A stretch of DNA of 64,000 bases from positions 16,284-80,283 of the forward strand of contig CAAGMR010000016.1 in NCBI GenBank assembly GCA_900771085.1. The letters are read 5' to 3'. How positions within the stretch are numbered: the first letter of the stretch is position 1; each line of letters opens with the position of its first letter. This document shows, one piece after another, positions 1 to 11,321 of this stretch. The translations under genes and the position numbers were made by a program. The stretch is from Clostridia bacterium. Its GTDB lineage: Bacteria > Bacillota > Clostridia > Oscillospirales > Acutalibacteraceae. The notes beneath the pieces were generated by a model that was not told the origin of the DNA, ran no database searches, and was given only the letters and a program-made list of their open reading frames with translations.

Positions 1-2
1 GT

Positions 3-524
3 TCAAACTTCACAACTCCATGGGTATGGCTTTCATCCAATGACCTCGTAAGTAACATCACAGGCAAGAAGCTTGAGAATTCCGCATTTGAAATCGGTGG
101 CGGTAAGCCAAAGGTATTCGGTATTTCTCTTCCTCGTAAGCTTCTTGGCGGCTTCTATTATGAAGGCGATTGCTATGAGTTCAACTTCTCCAAGCTCTGG
201 ACTCTTTCACAGACCCAGTTCGAAGGCTATGAGACAGACGATGAAATCGTATGGCACGTAGACCAGAAGACAATTCATGGACGTCTTATTACAGACATCC
301 GCTGCAAGAAGGAAGACATGCTTCTCATCCAGTATGAGTCACCTGACGGAAAGCTTCGTCATCAGAGACTCTGGAACTGCGGATGCGGTTATGGTGATCT
401 TAAGCTCTACAAGAGAAAGCTCTTCGGCTTCAAACTCGTTGACGATGTTCATGCTGAACATATCGGCTGCGAATACGGCGAATACGATCATCCTGAACCA
501 TACGTACAGGGCAGAAAGAAATAA
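3..524 (+). CDS. 5'-truncated CDS (C-terminal 173 aa) of unknown function; contains Cys cluster WNCGCGYGD
   Basis: Open frame 3 from window edge to TAA at 522-524, followed by hairpin terminator; no recognisable family from memory. Confidence 0.45.
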   Translation, partial: SNFTTPWVWLSSNDLVSNITGKKLENSAFEIGGGKPKVFGISLPRKLLGGFYYEGDCYEFNFSKLWTLSQTQFEGYETDDEIVWHVDQKTIHGRLITDIRCKKEDMLLIQYESPDGKLRHQRLWNCGCGYGDLKLYKRKLFGFKLVDDVHAEHIGCEYGEYDHPEPYVQGRKK

Positions 525-532
525 AGACAAAA

Positions 533-570
533 TAAAAAAACCTCTTCGGAAACCCGAAGAGGTTTTTGCT
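533..570. terminator. Bidirectional rho-independent terminator (A-tract, CCTCTTCGG-AAAC-CCGAAGAGG hairpin, T-tract)
   Basis: Perfect 9-bp stem 541-549/554-562 flanked by A8 and T5, between convergent genes. Confidence 0.65.
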
Positions 571-575
571 TTGTA

Positions 576-2114
576 TTATATCTCTTGACCACTTGGCATT
601 TCAGGAGGTGTTCCGTTTTGCATTCCGGGACCATTACCTCTTTGAAAGTCTCCTTCGGGCTTTTCGGGTGTACCGCCATTACTGTCAGGCCTTCGTGGGA
701 ATGTTCCATTTCTATCTACATCGTCAGGAGGGGTCTGAGGATTATTTCCATCAGGTTTATCGAATGCATTGCGATTGCCCATGCTATTCTCTGCAACATT
801 GGTGACTGTACACTCCGTTTCAGCATCTCCAACTTTTAAGGTTACAGTATCCCCAATGGCAATATCCGGAGAACTTATAATGACGGAAGTAAATGAACAA
901 GGAATTTCTCTGCTGATGATTTCTTTTCCACTAGCGTCAAGTAAGCTTAATGTATCGTTTGCATTTCCTGAAACAGTTTGCATAATGAAACCTTGCGAAG
1001 AATCGCCGGCAGGCCCTTCTGCCATTTGGCTTGAACCACAAGCTATAACAGTGCCACCTGAAATTGTACACTTGCCACCATTTTCGCTGCCGTAATCAAT
1101 AGCATTATTTGTGCCTGTTCCCATAAGACTGATAAACAAATTGCCACCGGTAATAGTAATGCTTCCGTTTGAATCAATACCATCGGCATCTCTGCCGTTT
1201 TTGTTTATAACAGTAATATCTCCGCCGGAAATGGTAATTTGTGAAGCTTTTCCGGTACCGCTTGCATTAATTCCGTCATCGTTTGGCGTAATGTTTACAG
1301 TTCCTCCGGTTAAGGTGATGTCATTTGCTTCTATACCTTCGTAGCACTCGGTAATATTAATATTTCCGGACTCCAGGTAGAAAATTGCACTTTCATCGTC
1401 ATTTCCGGCATGTAAGCCATCATCACCTGCTGAAACAGAAAAATCAGAGTTACAGATCTTAATTGCATCATGTGCGTGGACGGCGTCTTTTTTTGCTGTA
1501 ATATTAATTTTTCCGCCCGTAAACACAAGACTGTCATTGCAAACGATTCCATGTAAACCGCTTGAATTTATTGAAAGAGCTCCGTTTCCGTTTACAGTCA
1601 GATCATCACGTGAAAAGATACAGCCGTCAATGTCTGAACTCTCGTCATTGTTTCCGAATGTCAGGGTATTTTGGCTATTCTCTTTTAGAGTTAAAAAGAC
1701 TTTATTAGCACTGTTGATATAAAGCGGAGCATCTGTTTGTGAAGTGATATCCACCCCGTCAAACAAAATCCATATTTTATCATCGCCATCGGCATCTATA
1801 TGAATTGAACCATTCAGAGTACCGTTGATTACGTATCTGCCGGCGCATGCAATATACAGTGTGTTGTTACTGAAAGTAGCACCGCTTCCTTTGATTTTTG
1901 CAGAATCACCATCTAATACTATGGTTGTTGCACCGGTCGTATCCCAGTTCGCGTTCAAATCATTATCGGTAAACATTGCGCTTGCACTTTCCTCTTCTTC
2001 CCGGTGAACAACTGTAATACCAAGTTTTTCGCCAAACATGAACAGTACTGTAATAGCAAGCAGGATAGAGATAGCGGCAATACAAATCTTATCAATATGT
2101 TTGCTTGTCGACAT
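576..2114 (-). CDS. N-terminally membrane-anchored secreted parallel beta-helix repeat protein (Cthe_2159-like 'carbohydrate-binding domain' family) with Pro/Gly/Asn-rich low-complexity C-terminal tail
   Basis: TM helix after MSTSKHIDK; many G/N/D/T-rich ~22-aa beta-helix-type repeats (TGGxINIT, GGTVNIT, GGDITVI, GGNLFIS); RBS AAGGTGA; gene order with DUF4956 and VTC. Confidence 0.55.
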   Translation of the reverse strand: MSTSKHIDKICIAAISILLAITVLFMFGEKLGITVVHREEEESASAMFTDNDLNANWDTTGATTIVLDGDSAKIKGSGATFSNNTLYIACAGRYVINGTLNGSIHIDADGDDKIWILFDGVDITSQTDAPLYINSANKVFLTLKENSQNTLTFGNNDESSDIDGCIFSRDDLTVNGNGALSINSSGLHGIVCNDSLVFTGGKINITAKKDAVHAHDAIKICNSDFSVSAGDDGLHAGNDDESAIFYLESGNINITECYEGIEANDITLTGGTVNITPNDDGINASGTGKASQITISGGDITVINKNGRDADGIDSNGSITITGGNLFISLMGTGTNNAIDYGSENGGKCTISGGTVIACGSSQMAEGPAGDSSQGFIMQTVSGNANDTLSLLDASGKEIISREIPCSFTSVIISSPDIAIGDTVTLKVGDAETECTVTNVAENSMGNRNAFDKPDGNNPQTPPDDVDRNGTFPRRPDSNGGTPEKPEGDFQRGNGPGMQNGTPPEMPSGQEI

Positions 2115-2126
2115 CGTTTATTCACC

Positions 2127-2798
2127 TTATCCCATATAATCGCCGTTGTAACTTACAAGTACGGCACTATTGACACCGTTCATAGCTGCCAGAGAGTTAA
2201 TGAAATCAGTGTTGTCGTCTTTCAGGCGAATTTCCATATTGAGTTCCACAAGACCGTTCTGAGCTGATTTTGACTTCACTACACATTTTTCAGTCTGAGT
2301 CTTTACATAGTTCATAGCCTGTTTTTCTGCTTCGTGATTGATACAGGAAAGAACAATAATATAAGGATTCTTATGAGTCTTACGGTTAACAAATATCAGC
2401 AGAATTAAGCCAATAAAGGCGCTGCCGAAAACTGCCAGAGGAATCATTCCGGCGGCAAGGATAATGCCGGCGGCAATGGACCAGAACAGGAATGCAATAT
2501 CAAGCGGTTCTTTGATTGCAGTACGGAAACGGACAATTGAAAGCGCACCGACCATACCGAGGGAAAGAACTACGTTTGAGGTTATAGCAAGGATAACTTG
2601 AGATGTTATCATTGTGAGAGCAATCAGCGTCACGCCGAAAGAGGACGCAAACATCACGCCCTGATAAGTTTTCTTATAAACAAAGAAAATGAACAGACCT
2701 ATGCCAAAGGCAAGAAGAAGGGTCAGTATCATATCAAGCGGGCTGACGGATGTTACGTTCTCAAGAAATCCGGATTTGAAAATATCGCTAAATGTCAT
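2127..2798 (-). CDS. DUF4956 domain-containing integral membrane protein
   Basis: Polytopic membrane N-half plus soluble C-half; typical partner of VTC-domain proteins; RBS AAGGAG. Confidence 0.6.
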   Translation of the reverse strand: MTFSDIFKSGFLENVTSVSPLDMILTLLLAFGIGLFIFFVYKKTYQGVMFASSFGVTLIALTMITSQVILAITSNVVLSLGMVGALSIVRFRTAIKEPLDIAFLFWSIAAGIILAAGMIPLAVFGSAFIGLILLIFVNRKTHKNPYIIVLSCINHEAEKQAMNYVKTQTEKCVVKSKSAQNGLVELNMEIRLKDDNTDFINSLAAMNGVNSAVLVSYNGDYMG

Positions 2799-2817
2799 TA
2801 ATTATTACTCCTTTTTG

Positions 2818-3489
2818 TTAGCCGTAAACACGGCACTGTGCATATTTTGAAAAAGCGCTGACGTGACGTCCCGGGATAGAAACGGCGTCTTTTATAATAT
2901 CCGGCAGATACTCATCCCATTTGACTTCCAGAATGACGGGAGCATTTCCTGCGGGAAGAGTGATGGTCGCCGGGTTAAGAAAATCTGTTCGGAAAACCCC
3001 GGTTCGGATATTATAATCGATGGTAACGCGCACGTTGCCGGGGCCAAAAACAAATGGCTCGCGGGTGTAATCGACGATAGTTTTCGGCTTGAGTCCTTGC
3101 GAAATCATCTTGGAATACAGTTCCAGGCACAATGGCTTATCGCTTTCCATCATCCAGCTCACATCACCATCAACTATTTTCTGAGCTTCTTCTTTTGTAA
3201 TCGGACAGCTTTCTTTGGCACATAGACCGTTTATCTTGCTTTTCTTCTCCAGGACGATAAACGATGTATCTCCGTTGTAATACCGGATGCGATATTTTTC
3301 GCGGATGTTGACTCCGTCGATTTTTTCACGCAGGGCCTTATCGGAAAGATTGTCAAAATAAAGGCTCCTTATCTGATACGTACCGTTTAATGAATGCCTG
3401 TCCCGTTTCATAACAGCAGCAAGCCGCATGCGAAGTACCAGCATATCGGCATAGTTTATTTCATGTTTCCACTCATGACGATATTTCAT
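2818..3489 (-). CDS. VTC domain-containing protein (polyphosphate polymerase-like, CYTH/triphosphate-tunnel fold)
   Basis: MKYRHEWKHEI... start, Arg/Lys/Tyr-rich tunnel motifs (REKYRIRYY, EVKWDE); RBS AAAGGAGA. Confidence 0.6.
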   Translation of the reverse strand: MKYRHEWKHEINYADMLVLRMRLAAVMKRDRHSLNGTYQIRSLYFDNLSDKALREKIDGVNIREKYRIRYYNGDTSFIVLEKKSKINGLCAKESCPITKEEAQKIVDGDVSWMMESDKPLCLELYSKMISQGLKPKTIVDYTREPFVFGPGNVRVTIDYNIRTGVFRTDFLNPATITLPAGNAPVILEVKWDEYLPDIIKDAVSIPGRHVSAFSKYAQCRVYG

Positions 3490-3730
3490 TTTTTTCTCCT
3501 TTCCAATGGAGGTTCTGCGTAAAGGCCAGATTCCATTTGAAATTTGCCTTTGGAATGAAAGGCTTTTGAAGCAAGTATAAAGACGTCTGCTGAATCAACG
3601 CTGAAAGATTTGATAAAAATGAAGTTTTTTAAAAAGCGTTTAATTACCGTTTTCAGCATTATTTCAGCTTTTTGCCTGTAGTATAATAAATGCGACATAC
3701 AATAGAAAAATCCGTGAATCGGAGGATTTT

Positions 3731-4408
3731 ATGAAGATATTAATAATTGAAGATGAAAAGTTGTTGGCTGACTCCATCAGAATGCTTCTTACACGTAAAG
3801 GCTTTGAGGTTGAATGCGTTTACGACGGGAAAACAGGAGCCGAGTATGCCGAGCTCGGGGTATATGATCTGCTGATTTTAGATGTAATGATGCCAGAAAT
3901 GGACGGATATCAGGTGGCTCGGGAAGTTCGGTCTAAACGCTGTTCAACACCGATTCTGATGCTGACTGCAAAATCCGGACTGGAAGATCGGATTACCGGA
4001 CTGAATTCCGGCGCTGACTACTATTTGACCAAACCTTTTGATACAAGAGAACTGCTTGCATGCATCAACGCTCTGCTCCGCCGTCAAGGTGGACAGGTAG
4101 ATGAAATGACCTTTGGAAACACTACTCTTGATCTGTCTACCAGCATTCTGGCCTGTGGAGAAAACAGTGTTCGCCTGAGTGACCGTGAATTTGATATGAT
4201 GCGTTTCCTGATGCAATCACGGGAACGCAATATTTCCAAGGAAGTCCTACTTGTTCGAATCTGGGGCTTTGAATCAAACGCGACGGAAAACCATGTGGAA
4301 GTATATGTAGGATTTCTGCGAAAGAAGCTTCGCAGAATAGGGTCCAATATCCGCATTGAAGCAATTCGTCGGCAGGGTTATCATCTGGAGGTGGATGAAT
4401 CATGCTGA
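3731..4408 (+). CDS. OmpR-family response regulator
   Basis: Receiver domain (DD...D57 context LLILDVMMPEMDG, K at LTAKS) plus winged-helix C-term (GYHLE); RBS GGAGG. Confidence 0.9.
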   Translation: MKILIIEDEKLLADSIRMLLTRKGFEVECVYDGKTGAEYAELGVYDLLILDVMMPEMDGYQVAREVRSKRCSTPILMLTAKSGLEDRITGLNSGADYYLTKPFDTRELLACINALLRRQGGQVDEMTFGNTTLDLSTSILACGENSVRLSDREFDMMRFLMQSRERNISKEVLLVRIWGFESNATENHVEVYVGFLRKKLRRIGSNIRIEAIRRQGYHLEVDESC

Positions 4409-5613
4409 AAAAACTTAGATTGAAGTTTATACTGATCAACATGATTATTGTCACCATCATCATGAGTGTGATTTTCAGCCTGTTATATTTTTCCTCCAGT
4501 CGAAATCTTGAATGGGAAAGCACACAAACGATGGAAAAACTCATTGTCAGGCCGATAAACACAGATTTACCGAAGCAGCAATCTAACGATATTCGTCTTC
4601 CATACCTAAGAGTGTCGATGAATCAAAAAGGTGAGATAATCGAAGCAGACAGCAATTTTTTTGATTTATCAGATCAAGACCGACTTATGTCAATTCTTGC
4701 TTTGGTAGACGACTCAAAGTCTGAAAGAGGAGTGTTGCATGATTATAAATTGCGATATCTTCGTTCGGAAACACCTAGGGAAGTGCGCGTTGTACTCGCT
4801 GATATGTCCAGTGAACAGTCGATGCTACACAATCTGATTCGAACTTTTTTAATTATTGGCAGCGCAGCCTTCCTGCTTTTCCTGGTTATAAGTGTGTTCC
4901 TGGCACGATGGGCAGTAAAACCTGTTGAATCTGCATGGCAAAAGCAAAAACAGTTCGTGGCAGATGCTTCGCACGAGCTGAAAACACCGCTGACAGTTAT
5001 CATGACAGACGCAGAACTTCTTCACTCGCCGGACTGCCTGGAAGGGGATAGAGAATTGCTGACGGAAAGCATTCTTACAATGTCCTCACAGATGCGAGGT
5101 CTGGTGGAAAATCTTCTTGACCTTGCGAGAATTGATAATGGTAGTGCAAAAGAAGATTTCAGTGTCGTTTCTTTTAGCGATATCGTGTCTGATGTCACAA
5201 TGACGATGGAGCCCGTCTTTTTTGAAAAGGAATTGCCTTTGCGGTATGAGATTGAGCCGGACATTAGAATAAATGGCATACCGGCACATCTTAACCAGCT
5301 GGTTTGTATTTTTATGGATAACGCCGGGAAGTACGTATCTCCCGGAGGAGAAACAGTTGTGGGACTCAGTCGCTGTGCTCATAAGCGATGCCGGCTGGTA
5401 GTATCGAATCAGGGGAATCCAATCAGCGATGAGGATATAAAAAATATTTTCAAACGATTCTATCGGGCTGATAAAGCCAGAACAATGAATCATAGCTATG
5501 GCCTTGGTCTTTCTATCGCTCAGAATATAGCAGAGGAACATCGTGGAAAAATCTGGGCAAAAAGCGAGGGCGGCTATAACAGCTTTTTTGTAGAATTACC
5601 ATGTCTTGAATAA
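4402..5613 (+). CDS. Sensor histidine kinase (2 TM, HisKA + HATPase_c)
   Basis: H-box ADASHELKTPLT, N/G boxes (MDNAGKY, GLGLSIA); overlaps RR stop (ATGA coupling). Confidence 0.9.
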   Translation: MLKKLRLKFILINMIIVTIIMSVIFSLLYFSSSRNLEWESTQTMEKLIVRPINTDLPKQQSNDIRLPYLRVSMNQKGEIIEADSNFFDLSDQDRLMSILALVDDSKSERGVLHDYKLRYLRSETPREVRVVLADMSSEQSMLHNLIRTFLIIGSAAFLLFLVISVFLARWAVKPVESAWQKQKQFVADASHELKTPLTVIMTDAELLHSPDCLEGDRELLTESILTMSSQMRGLVENLLDLARIDNGSAKEDFSVVSFSDIVSDVTMTMEPVFFEKELPLRYEIEPDIRINGIPAHLNQLVCIFMDNAGKYVSPGGETVVGLSRCAHKRCRLVVSNQGNPISDEDIKNIFKRFYRADKARTMNHSYGLGLSIAQNIAEEHRGKIWAKSEGGYNSFFVELPCLE

Positions 5614-5657
5614 TGCTTTCCTGGAAAGCAGTCTGATAACACCACGGAAAAACGAAA

Positions 5658-5716
5658 ATCACCCCATCCCGGACAATGCTCCGAGATGGGGTGATTTATG
5701 ATAGTGTTTTGGAAAA
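5658..5716 (+). terminator. Rho-independent terminator after histidine kinase
   Basis: TCACCCCATC...GATGGGGTGA hairpin followed by T-rich tract. Confidence 0.5.
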
Positions 5717-5752
5717 GAAAAAAGGTAGTAGACTTTTTTAAAGTCTACTACC
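5712..5752 (-). terminator. Rho-independent terminator downstream of tRNA-Pro (minus strand)
   Basis: GGTAGTAGACTTT/AAAGTCTACTACC 13-bp stem; on minus strand followed by T-tract (A-tract 5712-5723 on plus). Confidence 0.55.
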
Positions 5753-5755
5753 TTA

Positions 5756-5832
5756 TGGTCGAGGTGAAGGGACTCGAACCCCCGGCCCTCTGGTCCCAAA
5801 CCAGATGCGCTACCAAACTGCGCTACACCTCG
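5756..5832 (-). tRNA. tRNA-Pro (anticodon UGG), CCA encoded
   Basis: Reverse complement CGAGGTGTAGCGCAGTTTGGTAGCGCATCTGGTTTGGGACCAGAGGGCCGGGGGTTCGAGTCCCTTCACCTCGACCA folds as cloverleaf; anticodon loop TTTGGGA. Confidence 0.85.
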
Positions 5833-5952
5833 ATATGCTTGTCATCCAAGCGCTTATGTATTATAACAACTGATATTCTAACTGTCAACGCTTTTATACA
5901 AGTTTTTTCACGTGTCTTTATGCTATAATACATATAGATTTCTTCACGGGGT

Positions 5953-7467
5953 GTGAACATATATATGGCAATAAAGGAACGTGCGTCGGGAGTCCTGATG
6001 CATATAACATCTCTTCCATCTGAGTACGGCATAGGCACTTTGGGAAAAGAGGCAATAAAATTTGCTGATTTCCTCTCTAAAGCCGGTCAGAAGTACTGGC
6101 AGGTTCTGCCACTCGGTCCGACCGGTCTTGGCAACAGCCCGTACTCATCTTTTTCGACTTTTGCCGGAAACAATCTCCTCATAGACATTGAAATGCTTAT
6201 TGAGGATGGCGTGGTTTCAAAGGCTTTTGTCGACGCTCTGCCATGGGGCGATGATCCTGAAAAAGTTGATTTTGAAACAGTAAGAGCTTCAAAGGACAAG
6301 GTGCTTCTTGAGGCTTTCAAAAACGGATATGAAAAAGAGAAGAGCGATGTAGAAGCTTTTAAAAATGCCAATGCGTGGCTTAAAAACTACGCATTGTTCA
6401 TGACGGCGCGCGAGCTGAGCGACGGCGCCGCATGGACCGAATGGGACGAGCCGCTGCGTCGCCGCGATCCCGAGGCGCTGCGCGGGCTCGAAGAGGAATA
6501 TGGCGAGAAGGTAAATTACTATACTTACGTTCAGTACATTTTTTTCAGACAGTGGGCAAAGTTCAAGGCTCACGTCGAAGAGCTGGGAATAAAGATTATC
6601 GGTGACATGCCGATGTATGTTGCAATGGACTCGGCGGACACCTGGTGCGAACCGCAGTTTTTCCAGATGGATGACGACTTTGTACCGTCACATGTTGCAG
6701 GAGTACCGCCTGATTATTTCTCGGAAGAGGGCCAGCTCTGGGGCAACCCTCTTTATGACTGGGATGCAATGAAAAATGACGGATATGGCTGGTGGATTCG
6801 TCGCGTTGAAGGTGCAGTCCGCATGTTCGACGTAATCCGAATCGACCATTTCAGAGCGTTTGCAAGCTACTGGTCAGTTCCGGCAGATGCCGAAACAGCG
6901 AAGACAGGTGAGTGGGTTAAAGGACCGGGTATGGACCTTCTTGGAGTCCTCAAAAACTGGTTCTATGGAACAGAATATATTGCCGAAGACCTTGGAATTC
7001 TCACTCCGGATGTAAACGAACTGCTCGAGATAAGCGAACTTCCGGGTATGAATATACTGGAATTCGCTTTCACTGAAGATGCATCTTCAAAATACATGCC
7101 ACACAGAATAACAGAAAATGCGATCTGCTACACCGGCACGCATGATAACGATACCGTTTTGGGATGGTGGCTCGATGAGACCGTAGCAAGAGAAGACAGA
7201 ACGGTAGCCGCTCTTTACCTCGGATTAAACGAGGACGAAAAGGACGCAATGCTTATAAGCAGAGCATTTATCAGAGCGGGCTTGGGAACTAAAGCCGTCC
7301 TCGCAATCGCTCAGATGCAGGACTGGCTCGCGCTTGACACAAGCGCTCGCATGAATGTTCCCGGAGTTGCACTCGGGAACTGGTCCTGGCGTATGAAGCA
7401 GGGTGCAGCTGACGATGCACTTGCCGATGAGATGCACGAGTACACCGCAATATTCTCAAGACTATAA
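5953..7467 (+). CDS. malQ: 4-alpha-glucanotransferase (amylomaltase, GH77)
   Basis: RASGVLMHITSLPS N-terminus, GH77 motifs (RIDHFRAF, GDMPMYV); start may be the second Met at 5965. Confidence 0.85.
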   Translation: MNIYMAIKERASGVLMHITSLPSEYGIGTLGKEAIKFADFLSKAGQKYWQVLPLGPTGLGNSPYSSFSTFAGNNLLIDIEMLIEDGVVSKAFVDALPWGDDPEKVDFETVRASKDKVLLEAFKNGYEKEKSDVEAFKNANAWLKNYALFMTARELSDGAAWTEWDEPLRRRDPEALRGLEEEYGEKVNYYTYVQYIFFRQWAKFKAHVEELGIKIIGDMPMYVAMDSADTWCEPQFFQMDDDFVPSHVAGVPPDYFSEEGQLWGNPLYDWDAMKNDGYGWWIRRVEGAVRMFDVIRIDHFRAFASYWSVPADAETAKTGEWVKGPGMDLLGVLKNWFYGTEYIAEDLGILTPDVNELLEISELPGMNILEFAFTEDASSKYMPHRITENAICYTGTHDNDTVLGWWLDETVAREDRTVAALYLGLNEDEKDAMLISRAFIRAGLGTKAVLAIAQMQDWLALDTSARMNVPGVALGNWSWRMKQGAADDALADEMHEYTAIFSRL

Positions 7468-7504: not shown

Positions 7505-8455
7505 ATGTTTAAGGAATTAAAAGCGAAAGTTTCGCCGGGCTTCCTTGTGTTCAGAGCTGTTGATATCGTTCTGGACGGAGCCCAGAACGAGCAGCCTATG
7601 CTCTATGATGACAACGGGGAAATAGAAGTTATCAGAGACATATGCTATACCGACAGAAAAGAATGGAAGAAATACTGCGCAATTGACATCTATCGCAAGG
7701 CATGCGACGGACCTCAGCCGGTACTCTTCTACATCCATGGTGGCGGATTTGATGCCGGCGGAAAGAAATACCGCCGCGGAATGGCAACCTGGATGGCGAA
7801 GACAGGCATCTGCGTTGTAAACGTGGAATACGGACTGTCTCCGCTCTTCAGCTTCAAAGAGAGTCTTCAGATGCTTGCCGAGGGTATGAACTGGGTGGCA
7901 GACAATGCCGAAAAGTATGGCTTCAACCTTGATCGTGTCATGGTTGGCGGAGACTCATCCGGCGGATACATGGCGCTCGGCTGTGTGAACCTTACAAACA
8001 ATGAGGAATACCGAAAAGCAATCGGTGCCGAACCTGTCCGCCTGAAATTCGCAGGCTCGTACATGAACTGTGGTATTTTCGACCTGCACAAGATGCTTCA
8101 CACACCGGTTATCGGACTGGTTGCAGGCATTCTTTCCAAAGACACAATGGGCGCATGGAAACGTCAGTTTGACGACCATCCGGACCGTGAACTCTGCAGC
8201 CCGATTAACTACGTGACAGCAGACTTCCCAAAGGAAGCCTTCTTCTCATATGCGAAGTATGATGCTTTATGCTTCGGACAGACCCAGAATCTTCTTAAGA
8301 AACTGGATGAATACGGCTGTGCATATGATGAATATCACAGCACAAACCCTCTTCAGAATCACTGCTTTATGTTCAACTGGGCACAGAAAGGTCAGTGCGC
8401 AGAGAACAATGAGAAGGTTTACAGATTCATTGAATCTTTCGTTGGAAAATCATAA
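7505..8455 (+). CDS. Alpha/beta hydrolase fold-3 esterase/lipase
   Basis: HGGGF oxyanion motif and GDSSGG nucleophile elbow; RBS GAGGAGG. Confidence 0.75.
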   Translation: MFKELKAKVSPGFLVFRAVDIVLDGAQNEQPMLYDDNGEIEVIRDICYTDRKEWKKYCAIDIYRKACDGPQPVLFYIHGGGFDAGGKKYRRGMATWMAKTGICVVNVEYGLSPLFSFKESLQMLAEGMNWVADNAEKYGFNLDRVMVGGDSSGGYMALGCVNLTNNEEYRKAIGAEPVRLKFAGSYMNCGIFDLHKMLHTPVIGLVAGILSKDTMGAWKRQFDDHPDRELCSPINYVTADFPKEAFFSYAKYDALCFGQTQNLLKKLDEYGCAYDEYHSTNPLQNHCFMFNWAQKGQCAENNEKVYRFIESFVGKS

Positions 8456-8504: not shown

Positions 8505-8609
8505 AAGCCATTTGTTTAGATATTGATAAAAAATAGTCAATCTTATCAGGACATTGTCAAGCCTTTTTAGTTATTGTACATAAATTGGCTTTTTGCCTGT
8601 TTTAGTCAA

Positions 8610-8638
8610 TTGATAGATGGCAGTGTTTATGGTATAAT
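8610..8638 (+). promoter_or_regulatory. Near-consensus sigma-A promoter for ppdK (TTGATA-17 nt-TGgTATAAT extended -10)
   Basis: -35 TTGATA 8610-8615, 17-nt spacer, TATAAT 8633-8638 with upstream TG. Confidence 0.55.
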
Positions 8639-8678
8639 ATCGCGCGTATCCAAATACATTTTATTCGGAGGTAAAAAC

Positions 8679-11321
8679 ATGGCTAACAAATGGGTTTATA
8701 TGTTTAGCGAAGGCGACATGACCATGAGAAATCTTCTCGGTGGTAAGGGCGCTAACCTCGCTGAGATGACAACAATTGGTCTTCCTGTACCACAGGGCTT
8801 CACAGTAACAACAGAGGCTTGTACTCAGTACTATGAAGATGGCCGCAAAATTAATGACGAAATCATGGCTCAGATCATGGATGGCGTTGCAAAGATGGAA
8901 GAAATCAACGGTAAGAAGTTTGGTGACAAGACCAACCCTCTCCTTGTTTCTGTTCGTTCAGGTGCCCGTGCTTCCATGCCTGGTATGATGGACACAATCC
9001 TTAACCTCGGTCTTAATGACGAAGTTGTAGCTTCAATGATCGCTGGTAACCCAGATCCATCATTTGAGCGTTTTGTATATGACTCTTACAGACGTTTCAT
9101 TCAGATGTTCTCTGACGTAGTAATGGAAGTTGGTAAGAAGTATTTCGAACAGCTTATCGACAAGATGAAGGAAGAAAAGGGCGTACAGTTCGACGTTGAA
9201 CTTACAGCTGCTGATCTTAAGACTCTTGCTGAGCAGTTCAAGGCTGAATACAAGAATCAGCTTGGCGAAGACTTCCCATCTGATCCTGTTACACAGCTCA
9301 AGCTTGCTGTAGAGGCTGTATTCCGTTCATGGGATAACCCTCGTGCAAACGTTTACCGTCGTGACAACGATATCCCTTACTCATGGGGTACTGCTGTTAA
9401 CGTAATGCCAATGGTATTCGGTAACCTTAACAACGAATCCGGTACAGGTGTTGCATTCACTCGTGACCCTGCTACAGGTGAAAACAAACTTATGGGTGAG
9501 TTCCTTATCAATGCACAGGGCGAAGACGTAGTTGCAGGTGTTCGTACACCAATGCCAATCGCTCAGATGGAAAAGGAATTCCCAGAAGCATACGCAGAAT
9601 TTATCAAGGTTTGTGATACTCTTGAAAATCACTACCACGACATGCAGGGCATGGAGTTCACTGTGGAAAACAGAAAGCTCTACATGCTCCAGTGCCGTAA
9701 CGGTAAGAGAACAGCTCCTGCTGCTCTCAAGATCGCTTGTGACCTCGTAGACGAAGGACACAAGACAGAACAGGAAGCTGTTCTCATGATTGACCCTCGT
9801 AACCTTGACACACTTCTTCACCCACAGTTCGACGCTGCTGCTCTTAAGGCTGCAACTCCACTTGGTAAGGGCCTCGGCGCTTCTCCTGGTGCTGCTTGCG
9901 GTAAGGTTGTATTCACAGCTGACGATGCAGAAGCTTGGAACAACCGTGGTGAGAAGGTAGTTCTTGTTCGTCTTGAAACTTCTCCAGAAGATATCAGCGG
10001 TATGAAGGCTGCTCAGGGTATCCTCACAGTTCGTGGTGGTATGACATCTCACGCTGCAGTAGTTGCTCGTGGTATGGGTACTTGCTGCGTATCCGGTTGT
10101 GGCGACATCAACATGGATGAAGAAAACAAGAAGTTCACTCTTGCAGGCGTTACATTTAACGAAGGCGACTACATCTCAATCGATGGTTCTACAGGTAACA
10201 TTTACCAGGGCCAGATTGCTACTGTTGACGCTCAGATTGCCGGCGAATTCGGCCGCGTAATGGCTTGGGCTGACAAGTATCGTCAGATGAAGGTTCGTAC
10301 AAACGCAGATACACCTGCTGACGCTAAGAAGGCTCGTGAACTCGGTGCTGAAGGTATCGGCCTTTGCCGTACAGAGCACATGTTCTTCGAAGCAGACAGA
10401 ATCGCAGCATTCCGCGAAATGATCTGCTCAGATACACAGGAAGAAAGAGAAGTAGCTCTTAACAAGATTCTTCCATATCAGCAGGGCGACTTCGAAGCTC
10501 TCTATGAAGCGCTCGAAGGCAATCCTGTAACAATCAGATTCCTTGACCCACCTCTTCATGAGTTCGTTCCTACAGAGGAAGACGATATCGCAGCTCTCGC
10601 TAAGGCTCAGGGCAAGACAGTTGAAGAGATCAAGGCTATCATCACTTCTCTCCACGAGTTCAACCCAATGATGGGTCACCGTGGATGCCGTCTCGCAGTA
10701 ACATATCCTGAAATCGCAGCAATGCAGACAAAGGCAGTTATCAGAGCAGCAATCAATGTTCAGAAGGCTCATCCTGACTGGACAGTTAAGCCTGAAATCA
10801 TGATCCCACTTGTTGGCGATGTTAAGGAACTGAAGTATGTTAAGGCTGTAGTTGTTGAAACAGCTGATGCTGAAATCGCTGCTGCAGGCGCTGACCTTGC
10901 TTACGAAGTTGGTACAATGATCGAGATTCCTCGTGCAGCTCTTACAGCTGACGAAATCGCAGCTAACGCTGACTTCTTCTGCTTCGGTACAAACGACCTT
11001 ACACAGATGACATACGGCTTCTCACGTGATGACGCCGGTAAGTTCCTCGATGCATACTATGATGCTAAGATCTTCGAAAACGATCCATTTGCTAAGCTTG
11101 ACCAGACAGGCGTTGGCAAGCTCATGAAGATGGCTCTTGAACTCGGTAAGCCGGTTAACGACAAGCTTCACTGCGGTATCTGCGGTGAGCACGGCGGTGA
11201 CCCAACATCAGTTGAATTCTGCCACGAAATTGGCCTCGACTATGTTTCATGCTCACCATTCCGCGTTCCAATCGCAAGACTTGCTGCTGCACAGGCTGCA
11301 ATCAACAACCCACGCAACTAA
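8679..11321 (+). CDS. ppdK: Pyruvate, phosphate dikinase
   Basis: 880 aa; N-term MANKWVYMFSEGD...LLGGKGANLAEM, phospho-His motif GGMTSHAAVVARGMG, PEP-utilising C-domain; RBS GGAGGT; track ORF from 8574 is an upstream extension. Confidence 0.92.
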   Translation: MANKWVYMFSEGDMTMRNLLGGKGANLAEMTTIGLPVPQGFTVTTEACTQYYEDGRKINDEIMAQIMDGVAKMEEINGKKFGDKTNPLLVSVRSGARASMPGMMDTILNLGLNDEVVASMIAGNPDPSFERFVYDSYRRFIQMFSDVVMEVGKKYFEQLIDKMKEEKGVQFDVELTAADLKTLAEQFKAEYKNQLGEDFPSDPVTQLKLAVEAVFRSWDNPRANVYRRDNDIPYSWGTAVNVMPMVFGNLNNESGTGVAFTRDPATGENKLMGEFLINAQGEDVVAGVRTPMPIAQMEKEFPEAYAEFIKVCDTLENHYHDMQGMEFTVENRKLYMLQCRNGKRTAPAALKIACDLVDEGHKTEQEAVLMIDPRNLDTLLHPQFDAAALKAATPLGKGLGASPGAACGKVVFTADDAEAWNNRGEKVVLVRLETSPEDISGMKAAQGILTVRGGMTSHAAVVARGMGTCCVSGCGDINMDEENKKFTLAGVTFNEGDYISIDGSTGNIYQGQIATVDAQIAGEFGRVMAWADKYRQMKVRTNADTPADAKKARELGAEGIGLCRTEHMFFEADRIAAFREMICSDTQEEREVALNKILPYQQGDFEALYEALEGNPVTIRFLDPPLHEFVPTEEDDIAALAKAQGKTVEEIKAIITSLHEFNPMMGHRGCRLAVTYPEIAAMQTKAVIRAAINVQKAHPDWTVKPEIMIPLVGDVKELKYVKAVVVETADAEIAAAGADLAYEVGTMIEIPRAALTADEIAANADFFCFGTNDLTQMTYGFSRDDAGKFLDAYYDAKIFENDPFAKLDQTGVGKLMKMALELGKPVNDKLHCGICGEHGGDPTSVEFCHEIGLDYVSCSPFRVPIARLAAAQAAINNPRN

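Follow-up and report, generated by a model that had tools for sequence, protein, structure and literature searches.

Within a 64-kb window of a rumen-type Clostridia genome (contig CAAGMR010000016.1; the window is the whole stretch of DNA that was analysed), we describe a five-gene island at 576-5613 in which a soluble VTC-family triphosphate-tunnel protein, a DUF4956 membrane protein and a membrane-anchored beta-helix protein are encoded together, divergently from the genes of a response regulator and a histidine kinase. We tentatively read the locus as a two-component-switched, three-protein machine that would make polyphosphate at the membrane and deliver it, or phosphoryl groups taken from it, to the surface of the cell, a reading that we regard as possible rather than probable. 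At the same time, much about the locus can be said more firmly, including its families, its organization and conservation in related species, the exchange of the outer domain of its third protein, and the conservation of Vtc4 residues in its tunnel enzyme.

The three minus-strand genes form one operon. In order of transcription they encode the Vtc4-like VTC protein (2818-3489, 223 aa), the DUF4956 protein (2127-2798, 223 aa) and the Cthe_2159 beta-helix surface protein (576-2114, 512 aa), with gaps of 19 nt and 12 nt between them and a Shine-Dalgarno sequence in each, and a hairpin terminator at 536-567 (a 14-bp stem, with a T-run on each strand) sits after the last stop codon, ending both this operon and a convergent plus-strand gene. 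Across a divergent spacer of 241 bp (3490-3730) lie the plus-strand genes of an OmpR/PhoB-family response regulator (3731-4408, 225 aa; a receiver and a winged helix, Response_reg and Trans_reg_C) and a histidine kinase (4402-5613, 403 aa; HisKA and HATPase_c), which overlap by 7 nt. The Pfam matches of all five open reading frame (ORF) products exceed curated gathering cut-offs, and two independent ENA metagenome contigs carry an identical locus with the same Pfam calls. A preliminary description of this DNA had placed these five ORFs, with the three co-directional genes, their gaps and the divergent regulator/kinase pair, exactly where we find them, and the families it named hold as well, with matches in the Pfam scan to VTC (PF09359, 1.1e-39, 136.8 bits against a cut-off of 23, residues 4-219), DUF4956 (PF16316, 1.1e-11, 45.2 bits against 30.6) and Cthe_2159 (PF14262, 4.8e-56, 190.4 bits against 25.8, residues 83-329).

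The same description had likened the VTC/DUF4956 pair to the eukaryotic VTC complex, and for the catalytic tunnel domain this likeness stands. The window protein matches Pfam VTC, not CYTH, it shares the VTC triphosphate-tunnel domain with Vtc4 of the yeast complex (PDB 3G3Q, 8I6V, 7YTJ), and a profile built from 47 diverse bacterial homologues matches the Vtc4 structures at 6.6e-10. In the VTC alignment, Vtc4 residues R264 and R266 correspond to window R67 and R69, E279 and K281 to E81 and K83, K294 to K92, Y359 and R361 to Y141 and R143, R373 to R154, E426 and K428 to E188 and K190, and S457 and K458 to S214 and K215; each of these twelve positions is either invariant or at least 90% conserved across the 47 homologues. 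K458 is the catalytic lysine of Vtc4, and the yeast protein carries basic residues where tunnel hydrolases have a four-Glu patch for a second metal (PMC4641920). The N-terminal strand reads R4-H-E6-W-K8 in the window protein and R196-Q-T198-T-K200 in Vtc4, and here K8 was mapped to K200, and E6 to T198, by an R-x-[E/T]-x-K motif, hmmalign having left strand 1 of Vtc4 unaligned; by this motif K200 is probably conserved too, and the bacterial VTC family is Vtc4-like at R4, K8 and K190. The RxExK form of the motif is also found in distant VTC homologues of Pseudobutyrivibrio and Planococcus. Judged from sequence, then, the active site looks like that of a polymerase with one hydrolase-like residue.

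Unlike yeast Vtc4, the window catalytic domain is a separate 223-aa soluble protein with neither transmembrane (TM) segments of its own nor an SPX domain, the Pfam scan finding the VTC domain only, and no second Pfam domain was found in longer VTC homologues. An apparent VTC-DUF4956 fusion in the representative library (P0304, 371 aa) was set aside; both of its domains are truncated, and it is more likely a frameshift or assembly artefact.

In yeast and in the window alike, the tunnel enzyme is encoded with an obligatory membrane partner, but the partners differ. Within the set, DUF4956 shows the strongest conservation (66-83% identity across 67 species), with an invariant core, SNVVLSLGMVGALSIVRFR-AIK-P-D, and basic-residue clusters in its predicted cytoplasmic loops; the relatives listed by a separate homologue search with DUF4956 were all at least 85% identical. 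The protein is polytopic by hydropathy, and AlphaFold2 (AF2) predicts five TM helices (residues 20-138) followed by a cytoplasmic beta-alpha-beta-beta-alpha-beta domain (residues 146-216) with a predicted local distance difference test (pLDDT) score of 71-85; of this model the C-terminal domain alone was used. Foldseek placed the C-terminal domain of MgtC first (2LQJ, E 4.5e-4, target TM-score 0.60) and ACT domains after it, and the NCBIfam MgtC/SapB model (PRK09977) matches residues 71-211 at E 4.4e-7 and 29.7 bits, a sub-threshold score against a cut-off of 214. A Pfam scan of the protein at E<=10 listed no MgtC family and no DUF202, and a PDB profile search with DUF4956 gave nothing meaningful. 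The DUF4956 homologue of S. intermedius has likewise been described as MgtC-like (PMC12345266). As modelled, DUF4956 is an MgtC-like protein of five TM helices and an ACT-like domain, unlike the three-helix Vtc1/DUF202 channel of the yeast complex. Because DUF4956 has no similarity to Vtc1/DUF202, only the catalytic domain resembles the eukaryotic complex, and the earlier comparison does not extend to the membrane partner or to SPX. The MgtC/SapB protein of M. tuberculosis (PDB 2LQJ) has the same succession of a multi-helix membrane domain and an ACT-like cytoplasmic domain, although the DUF4956 score is far under the family cut-off and MgtC is not known to partner a tunnel enzyme. In B. thetaiotaomicron, a DUF4956 gene stands beside a DUF2490 gene (BT3498-BT3499), and the two are reported as a single regulated entry in iron-limitation data (PMC10434189). 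We suggest that DUF2490 may be an outer-membrane partner of DUF4956 in diderm bacteria.

The pairing of the two genes is not peculiar to this genome. An all-against-all library search returned 4,539 VTC clusters (50% identity clusters, E<=1e-3), and a diverse VTC alignment was used to retrieve GTDB loci, the best 80 of at least 596 matching species being compared; all 80 come from metagenome-assembled genomes of rumen or gut Clostridia, one per species, with VTC identities of 61-81%. DUF4956 directly follows VTC in 79 of them, the exception (L057) being a contig that ends about 90 bp past VTC. In all loci whose contig continues (74), except L058, DUF4956 is followed by a third co-directional gene of about 500-850 aa, which in most loci starts at most 15 nt downstream (gaps of 4-15 nt). 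This third gene is a CotH kinase in 53 of the 74 (53 of 53 matching PF08757) and has a strong Cthe_2159 beta-helix match in the other 21. The invariant unit is VTC and DUF4956 plus a variable third gene, of which the beta-helix is the minority form and the CotH kinase the usual one; conservation of the trio as a neighbourhood, as earlier expected, is borne out for VTC-DUF4956 but does not extend to the kind of third gene. Clustering of all flanking ORFs in the 80 loci found no recurrent family other than regulator/kinase pairs, and no recurrent pel or glycosyltransferase genes. The window neighbours, namely a GH77 gene, an esterase gene, a pyruvate phosphate dikinase (PPDK)-like gene, tRNA-Pro and a tocopherol-cyclase-like gene, include no pel or other exopolysaccharide genes.

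What third-gene products of both types do share is their N-terminus. They start with the same module of about 34 residues, MSTHKHIDKIC-(hydrophobic helix)-LFMNGExLGI, which is 49% identical between the beta-helix and CotH types and 51-54% identical within each type. In the window protein this module (residues 1-34, 2013-2114, minus strand; MSTSKHIDKIC-TM-LFMFGEKLGI by hydropathy and third-gene alignment) is nearest to those of the CotH loci L008, L007, L006 and L004 (71-74%). It is followed by the PL9-like parallel beta-helix (residues 83-329, 1128-1868, minus strand), which is predicted to lie outside the membrane, the protein matching PDB 4PEU/4PHB at 5.8e-23 over residues 64-242, and by a tail of low complexity in which Pro, Gly, Asn and Asp abound (residues 441-512, 579-794, minus strand; 12 Pro and 11 Gly of 72). 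Hydropathy gives one N-terminal TM segment, in keeping with the TM-anchored beta-helix protein with a Pro/Gly-rich tail that had been recognized before. Besides the N-terminal TM, most third-gene proteins carry a second one near the C-terminus, reached through a long linker that is acidic and rich in Pro and Gly and followed by a basic KKK/RRK tail; with this topology the CotH or beta-helix domain comes to lie on the outer side of the membrane. The window protein stops within the linker and has neither the second TM nor the basic tail; about a dozen others also lack this second anchor.

On a tree of VTC and DUF4956, no fewer than 5 switches are needed to account for the type of the third gene, whereas shuffled types need 19 on average, and the window is the only beta-helix case within a CotH clade. 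Given this lone position and the CotH-like anchor, the outer domain has been replaced in place and the anchor kept. Since the anchor is conserved beyond what hydrophobicity would demand, we infer that the third protein contacts the VTC and DUF4956 proteins specifically. An anchor profile search of a 5.8-billion-protein set returned only fragments of 31-72 aa without Pfam domains, and so is uninformative on further types of outer domain.

As for the outer domains themselves, invariant Asp/Glu-rich turns are common to 20 aligned beta-helix proteins, and for Cthe_2159 of Clostridium thermocellum, a beta-helix of the PL9-like kind, binding to cellulose and polygalacturonate has been described (PMC6712302). 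The window domain belongs to the same family (PDB 4PEU/4PHB), but unlike the C. thermocellum protein it is tethered by a module-specific TM anchor, shares an operon with VTC and DUF4956, and can be exchanged for a kinase domain. The CotH-type relatives retain both catalytic Asp residues of B. subtilis CotH (D228 and D251) and their CotH domains are predicted to lie outside the cell, which together imply a phosphoryl donor on the outside.

The preliminary description had also proposed that the two-component system is dedicated to the operon and had pointed to 3490-3730 as the place for regulator sites; two oppositely oriented candidate boxes are present there, one for each promoter, and their geometry recurs in sister species. 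Box B (TTTCAGC-GTTG-ATTCAGC, 3589-3606, minus strand) is a 7-4-7 direct repeat facing the VTC operon, and the -10-like hexamer TATACT of the putative operon promoter (3574-3579, minus strand), read from the sequence, lies exactly 9 nt downstream of it. Box A (TTTCAGC-ATTA-TTTCAGC, 3651-3668, plus strand) faces the regulator/kinase operon, suggestive of autoregulation, and is followed by the -10 region TAGTATAAT of that promoter (3679-3687, plus strand), identified by sequence comparison. The pattern TTCAGC-N5-TTCAGC occurs exactly twice in 64 kb, both times perfect and in opposite orientations (3589-3605, minus strand, and 3652-3668, plus strand), and locus L001, which reaches about 7.7 kb further left than the window, has the same two boxes and no others. 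One 70-aa ORF at 3486-3698 (minus strand) was rejected as a gene; it overlies the operon promoter and box B.

In most of the 18 sister loci with a divergent regulator, the gene that points away from VTC is an orthologue of the window regulator (E about 1e-100). Comparison of the window with the intergenic regions of 13 sister loci whose regulator is divergent showed the repeat TTTCAGC-N4-TTTCAGC upstream of VTC in every locus but L061, an inverted copy of the box faces the regulator gene in most of the 13, and on the VTC side a TAnnnT hexamer follows exactly 9 nt after the box in 13 of 13 species. Among loci with a divergent regulator, 12 of 18 have the box, compared with 1 of 23 in which the regulator is co-directional and 5 of 38 in which none was detected. 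Of the 80 loci, 32 score for the strict geometry of a 7-4-7 repeat, 9 nt and a -10 hexamer; of shuffled sequences, 0.75% do so. Where a paralogous regulator/kinase pair is co-directional with VTC, this geometry is kept in the spacer that separates the kinase gene from VTC, but the half-sites are different, these spacers carrying direct repeats of 11-bp periodicity with lineage-specific half-sites: TTCAAT in L010, L015, L017, L029, L040, L073, L077 and L079, where the 9-nt gap to the -10 hexamer is kept, CTAAG in L042, L047, L049 and L064, and TTTAAG in L006, L008, L012 and L076. This change of half-site with regulator lineage argues strongly, as far as sequence comparison can, that the boxes are the regulator's own sites and the operon its dedicated target. 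The Pho box, for its part, comprises two 7-bp direct repeats with a 4-bp spacer, situated about 10 bp upstream of the -10 and replacing the -35. The arrangement here is the same, with the repeats 9-10 bp upstream of the -10, but the half-site is TTTCAGC, with others in sister lineages, and the regulator and kinase fall under the PhoB/PhoR cut-offs.

Several related gene sets have been described. Genes for CotH, a polyphosphate polymerase and DUF4956 (/DUF4832) are known as accessory genes beside Gram-positive pel loci (PMC7112168), and in S. intermedius the trio is SIR_1592-1594, where deletion of the DUF4956 or the CotH homologue results in less Pel and less aggregation; the authors of that study report that they found no trio outside pel loci (PMC12345266). 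As in the window, the pel-associated trio has a gene whose product is secreted or anchored after VTC and DUF4956, and in 53 of the 74 sister loci this gene is CotH as well. The trio differs from the window in that the third gene here is a Cthe_2159 beta-helix, with no pel or polysaccharide genes nearby and a two-component system of its own, and the clade-specific anchor motif of the window lineage is lacking in distant CotH proteins. The C. perfringens locus NELoc-2 encodes VTC, DUF4956, CotH, a protein of about 690 aa, a HEAT-repeat protein and a glycosyltransferase (PMC2879425), and a RefSeq plasmid of Planococcus maritimus (L084, 5389-12824) has the same order, VTC-DUF4956-CotH-X-HEAT-glycosyltransferase. 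These clusters share the VTC-DUF4956 core and the adjacent secreted protein, but they run on into a putative polysaccharide synthase system, whereas in the window a terminator behind the third gene closes the operon. In plasmid pNP95 of Pseudobutyrivibrio xylanivorans (RefSeq; L083, 5227-8366) the order is CotH-VTC-DUF4956, within a polysaccharide cluster with GT2, GT4 and GT61 glycosyltransferase genes and pyruvyl- and acyl-transferase genes. In Pseudobutyrivibrio and Planococcus, both cultured and more distant Bacillota, the trio is thus plasmid-borne and lies inside polysaccharide clusters.

On its left the island meets a convergent 393-aa gene with a weak Tocopherol_cycl match, within which the window begins (1-519, plus strand); beyond it, in the metagenome contig of L001 (9036-11245), lies a Y_phosphatase3 (PF13350) gene with no regulator box near it. 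The right-hand boundary is tRNA-Pro(TGG) at 5756-5832 (minus strand), which has a promoter of perfect sigma-70 consensus at 5888-5860 (TTGACA-17-TATAAT with an upstream TG) and two successive terminator hairpins (5754-5722 and 5697-5656). Flanked by a convergent gene on the left and a tRNA gene with its own promoter and terminators on the right, the five genes therefore form an island. Further right are housekeeping-type genes for a GH77 4-alpha-glucanotransferase (5953-7467, plus strand) and an esterase/lipase-like protein (7505-8455, plus strand), and the PPDK-like ORF (8574-11321, plus strand), whose listed TTG start is probably too far upstream. In other species, the GH77, esterase and PPDK genes do not recur beside the cassette. 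The window was found to hold each cassette gene once only, and an Rfam scan of 1-6200 returned no riboswitch or leader.

How, then, might such a machine work? In the model that we favour, the phosphorylated OmpR-family regulator would bind the two 7-4-7 repeats, one in the -35 region of each divergent promoter, and so activate both its own operon and the three-gene operon, which would build a three-part membrane complex. The cytoplasmic Vtc4-type tunnel enzyme would polymerise phosphate from ATP, and the MgtC-like subunit would hold it at the membrane and probably conduct or gate the polymer. The bitopic protein would join the complex through its module-specific N-terminal anchor and display the exchangeable outer domain, here a PL9-like beta-helix of an acidic-polysaccharide-binding family and in most relatives a CotH kinase. 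Polyphosphate, or phosphoryl groups derived from it, would thereby reach the cell surface, where the outer domain may bind them or use them on surface glycopolymers. The cell-surface phenotype of the S. intermedius DUF4956 and CotH mutants supports this reading (PMC12345266). The arrangement would set the window apart from the yeast complex in having a third subunit with a large outside domain, and in being controlled by a two-component system rather than by inositol pyrophosphate and SPX. A bolder version, in which this would be the first bacterial Vtc4-type polyphosphate polymerase-translocase, with the tunnel enzyme docked on the MgtC-like subunit and polyphosphate extruded to the outer membrane face, either as the phosphoryl or energy donor of extracytoplasmic CotH kinases or to be held by a PL9-like beta-helix, strikes us as doubtful.

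A number of points count against polymer synthesis and delivery. The known role of MgtC is regulatory, not that of a channel, and the overall AF2 model of DUF4956 is weak (pLDDT 62.6, from a shallow alignment), while that of the VTC protein (pLDDT 51.8, likewise from a shallow alignment) is unusable as a guide to the closed eight-stranded beta-tunnel fold. By motif alignment, bacterial VTC proteins have an invariant Glu6 where Vtc4 has Thr198, a position that is part of the second-metal acidic patch of tunnel hydrolases (PMC4641920), and the equivalence of K8 and K200 is one of motif register only, with no algorithmic alignment. Literature searches gave no bacterial VTC-domain protein shown to make polyphosphate, and nothing ties Cthe_2159 domains to that polymer. 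Finally, the 64-kb window has no CotH gene, its sole CotH match being the shared anchor, and supplying a kinase with phosphate therefore cannot be the role of the operon here.

As a rival explanation, the trio could be an accessory module that tunes the production or modification of surface polysaccharide or exopolysaccharide, with no polymer crossing the membrane. The product of the VTC protein would be polyphosphate inside the cell, or a phosphate signal, which DUF4956 would sense through its ACT-like domain, and the outer domain would act on a glycan. The trio does lie within polysaccharide clusters in distant cultured bacteria (pel, pNP95, Planococcus and C. perfringens), the S. intermedius mutants lose Pel (PMC12345266), Cthe_2159 binds cellulose and polygalacturonate (PMC6712302), and the MgtC-like architecture of DUF4956 is a regulatory one. 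Nonetheless, glycosyltransferase and pel genes are not recurrent neighbours in the 80 loci or in the window, and an accessory role leaves unexplained both an active-looking kinase outside the cell and tunnel residues of the Vtc4 rather than the hydrolase type; we would count it a minority possibility. That last observation weighs, too, on the idea of a membrane-tethered tri- or polyphosphatase, nucleoside triphosphate triphosphohydrolase or cyclase that serves an envelope-stress or adhesion response with the surface protein as effector. Glu6 occupies the position of the second Glu in the ExExK motif of tunnel hydrolases, AtTTM3 has a Vtc4-like tunnel and is yet only a tripolyphosphatase (PMC4641920), and two-component control is reminiscent of envelope regulons. 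But, as in Vtc4, basic residues appear to occupy three of the four positions of the acidic patch (R4 and K190, with either K83 or K92), the catalytic Ser-Lys pair of Vtc4 has been retained (S214-K215), and the Pfam match is to VTC and not CYTH, so that a hydrolase or signalling enzyme appears unlikely.

We consider it improbable that the two-component system is a PhoR/PhoB analogue, with cytoplasmic polyphosphate stored at the membrane and the surface protein a mere passenger. This would account for the 7-4-7 box about 10 bp upstream of the -10, which is Pho-box architecture, and PhoB, PhoR and PnpS are among the better NCBIfam models for the pair; the PhoB and PhoR scores, however, are far under the cut-offs (166.8 against 296.2 for PhoB, 135.4 against 334.2 for PhoR) and are exceeded by those of RppA and TctD. 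The kinase has two TM segments flanking a large outside loop of about 105 aa without a Pfam match, and no PAS domain, and no pst or pho genes are nearby. Moreover, the tight coupling of the third gene and the conservation of its anchor indicate that it is not a passenger. To a chance adjacency of unrelated genes we give next to no credence: it is refuted by the synteny, with order and orientation kept in 80 species and 4-15 nt gaps in most loci, and the shared anchor, the dedicated promoter and the terminator that closes the operon speak against it as well.

Earlier papers have described the CotH/VTC/DUF4956 set (PMC7112168, PMC12345266, PMC2879425), and in the window the beta-helix replaces CotH. 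What is new is the anchor shared between swapped outer domains, the co-variation of the predicted boxes, the residue-level comparison with Vtc4, and the occurrence of the module away from pel loci. VTC-domain proteins, which NCBI names "polyphosphate polymerase domain-containing", are a large family, and the locus described here is a compact, self-regulated version that offers several handles: predicted boxes, mutable residues (K8, K215 and E6), a conserved anchor pointing to a three-protein complex, and a natural swap of beta-helix and CotH. Bacterial polyphosphate synthesis is attributed to PPK1 and PPK2, beside which a polymerase-translocase of this kind, if real, would be a third route. 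Were the polyphosphate exported, this would explain how extracytoplasmic CotH kinases work without external ATP, and it would bear on the same genes in Pel-dependent streptococcal aggregation and in C. perfringens NELoc-2. If it is not exported, the trio has still been found outside pel loci and offers a clean case of co-variation between half-site and promoter, and the lineage-specific half-sites are a ready data set on regulator specificity. Either way, the locus makes the idea of VTC-based polyphosphate synthesis and export in bacteria directly testable.

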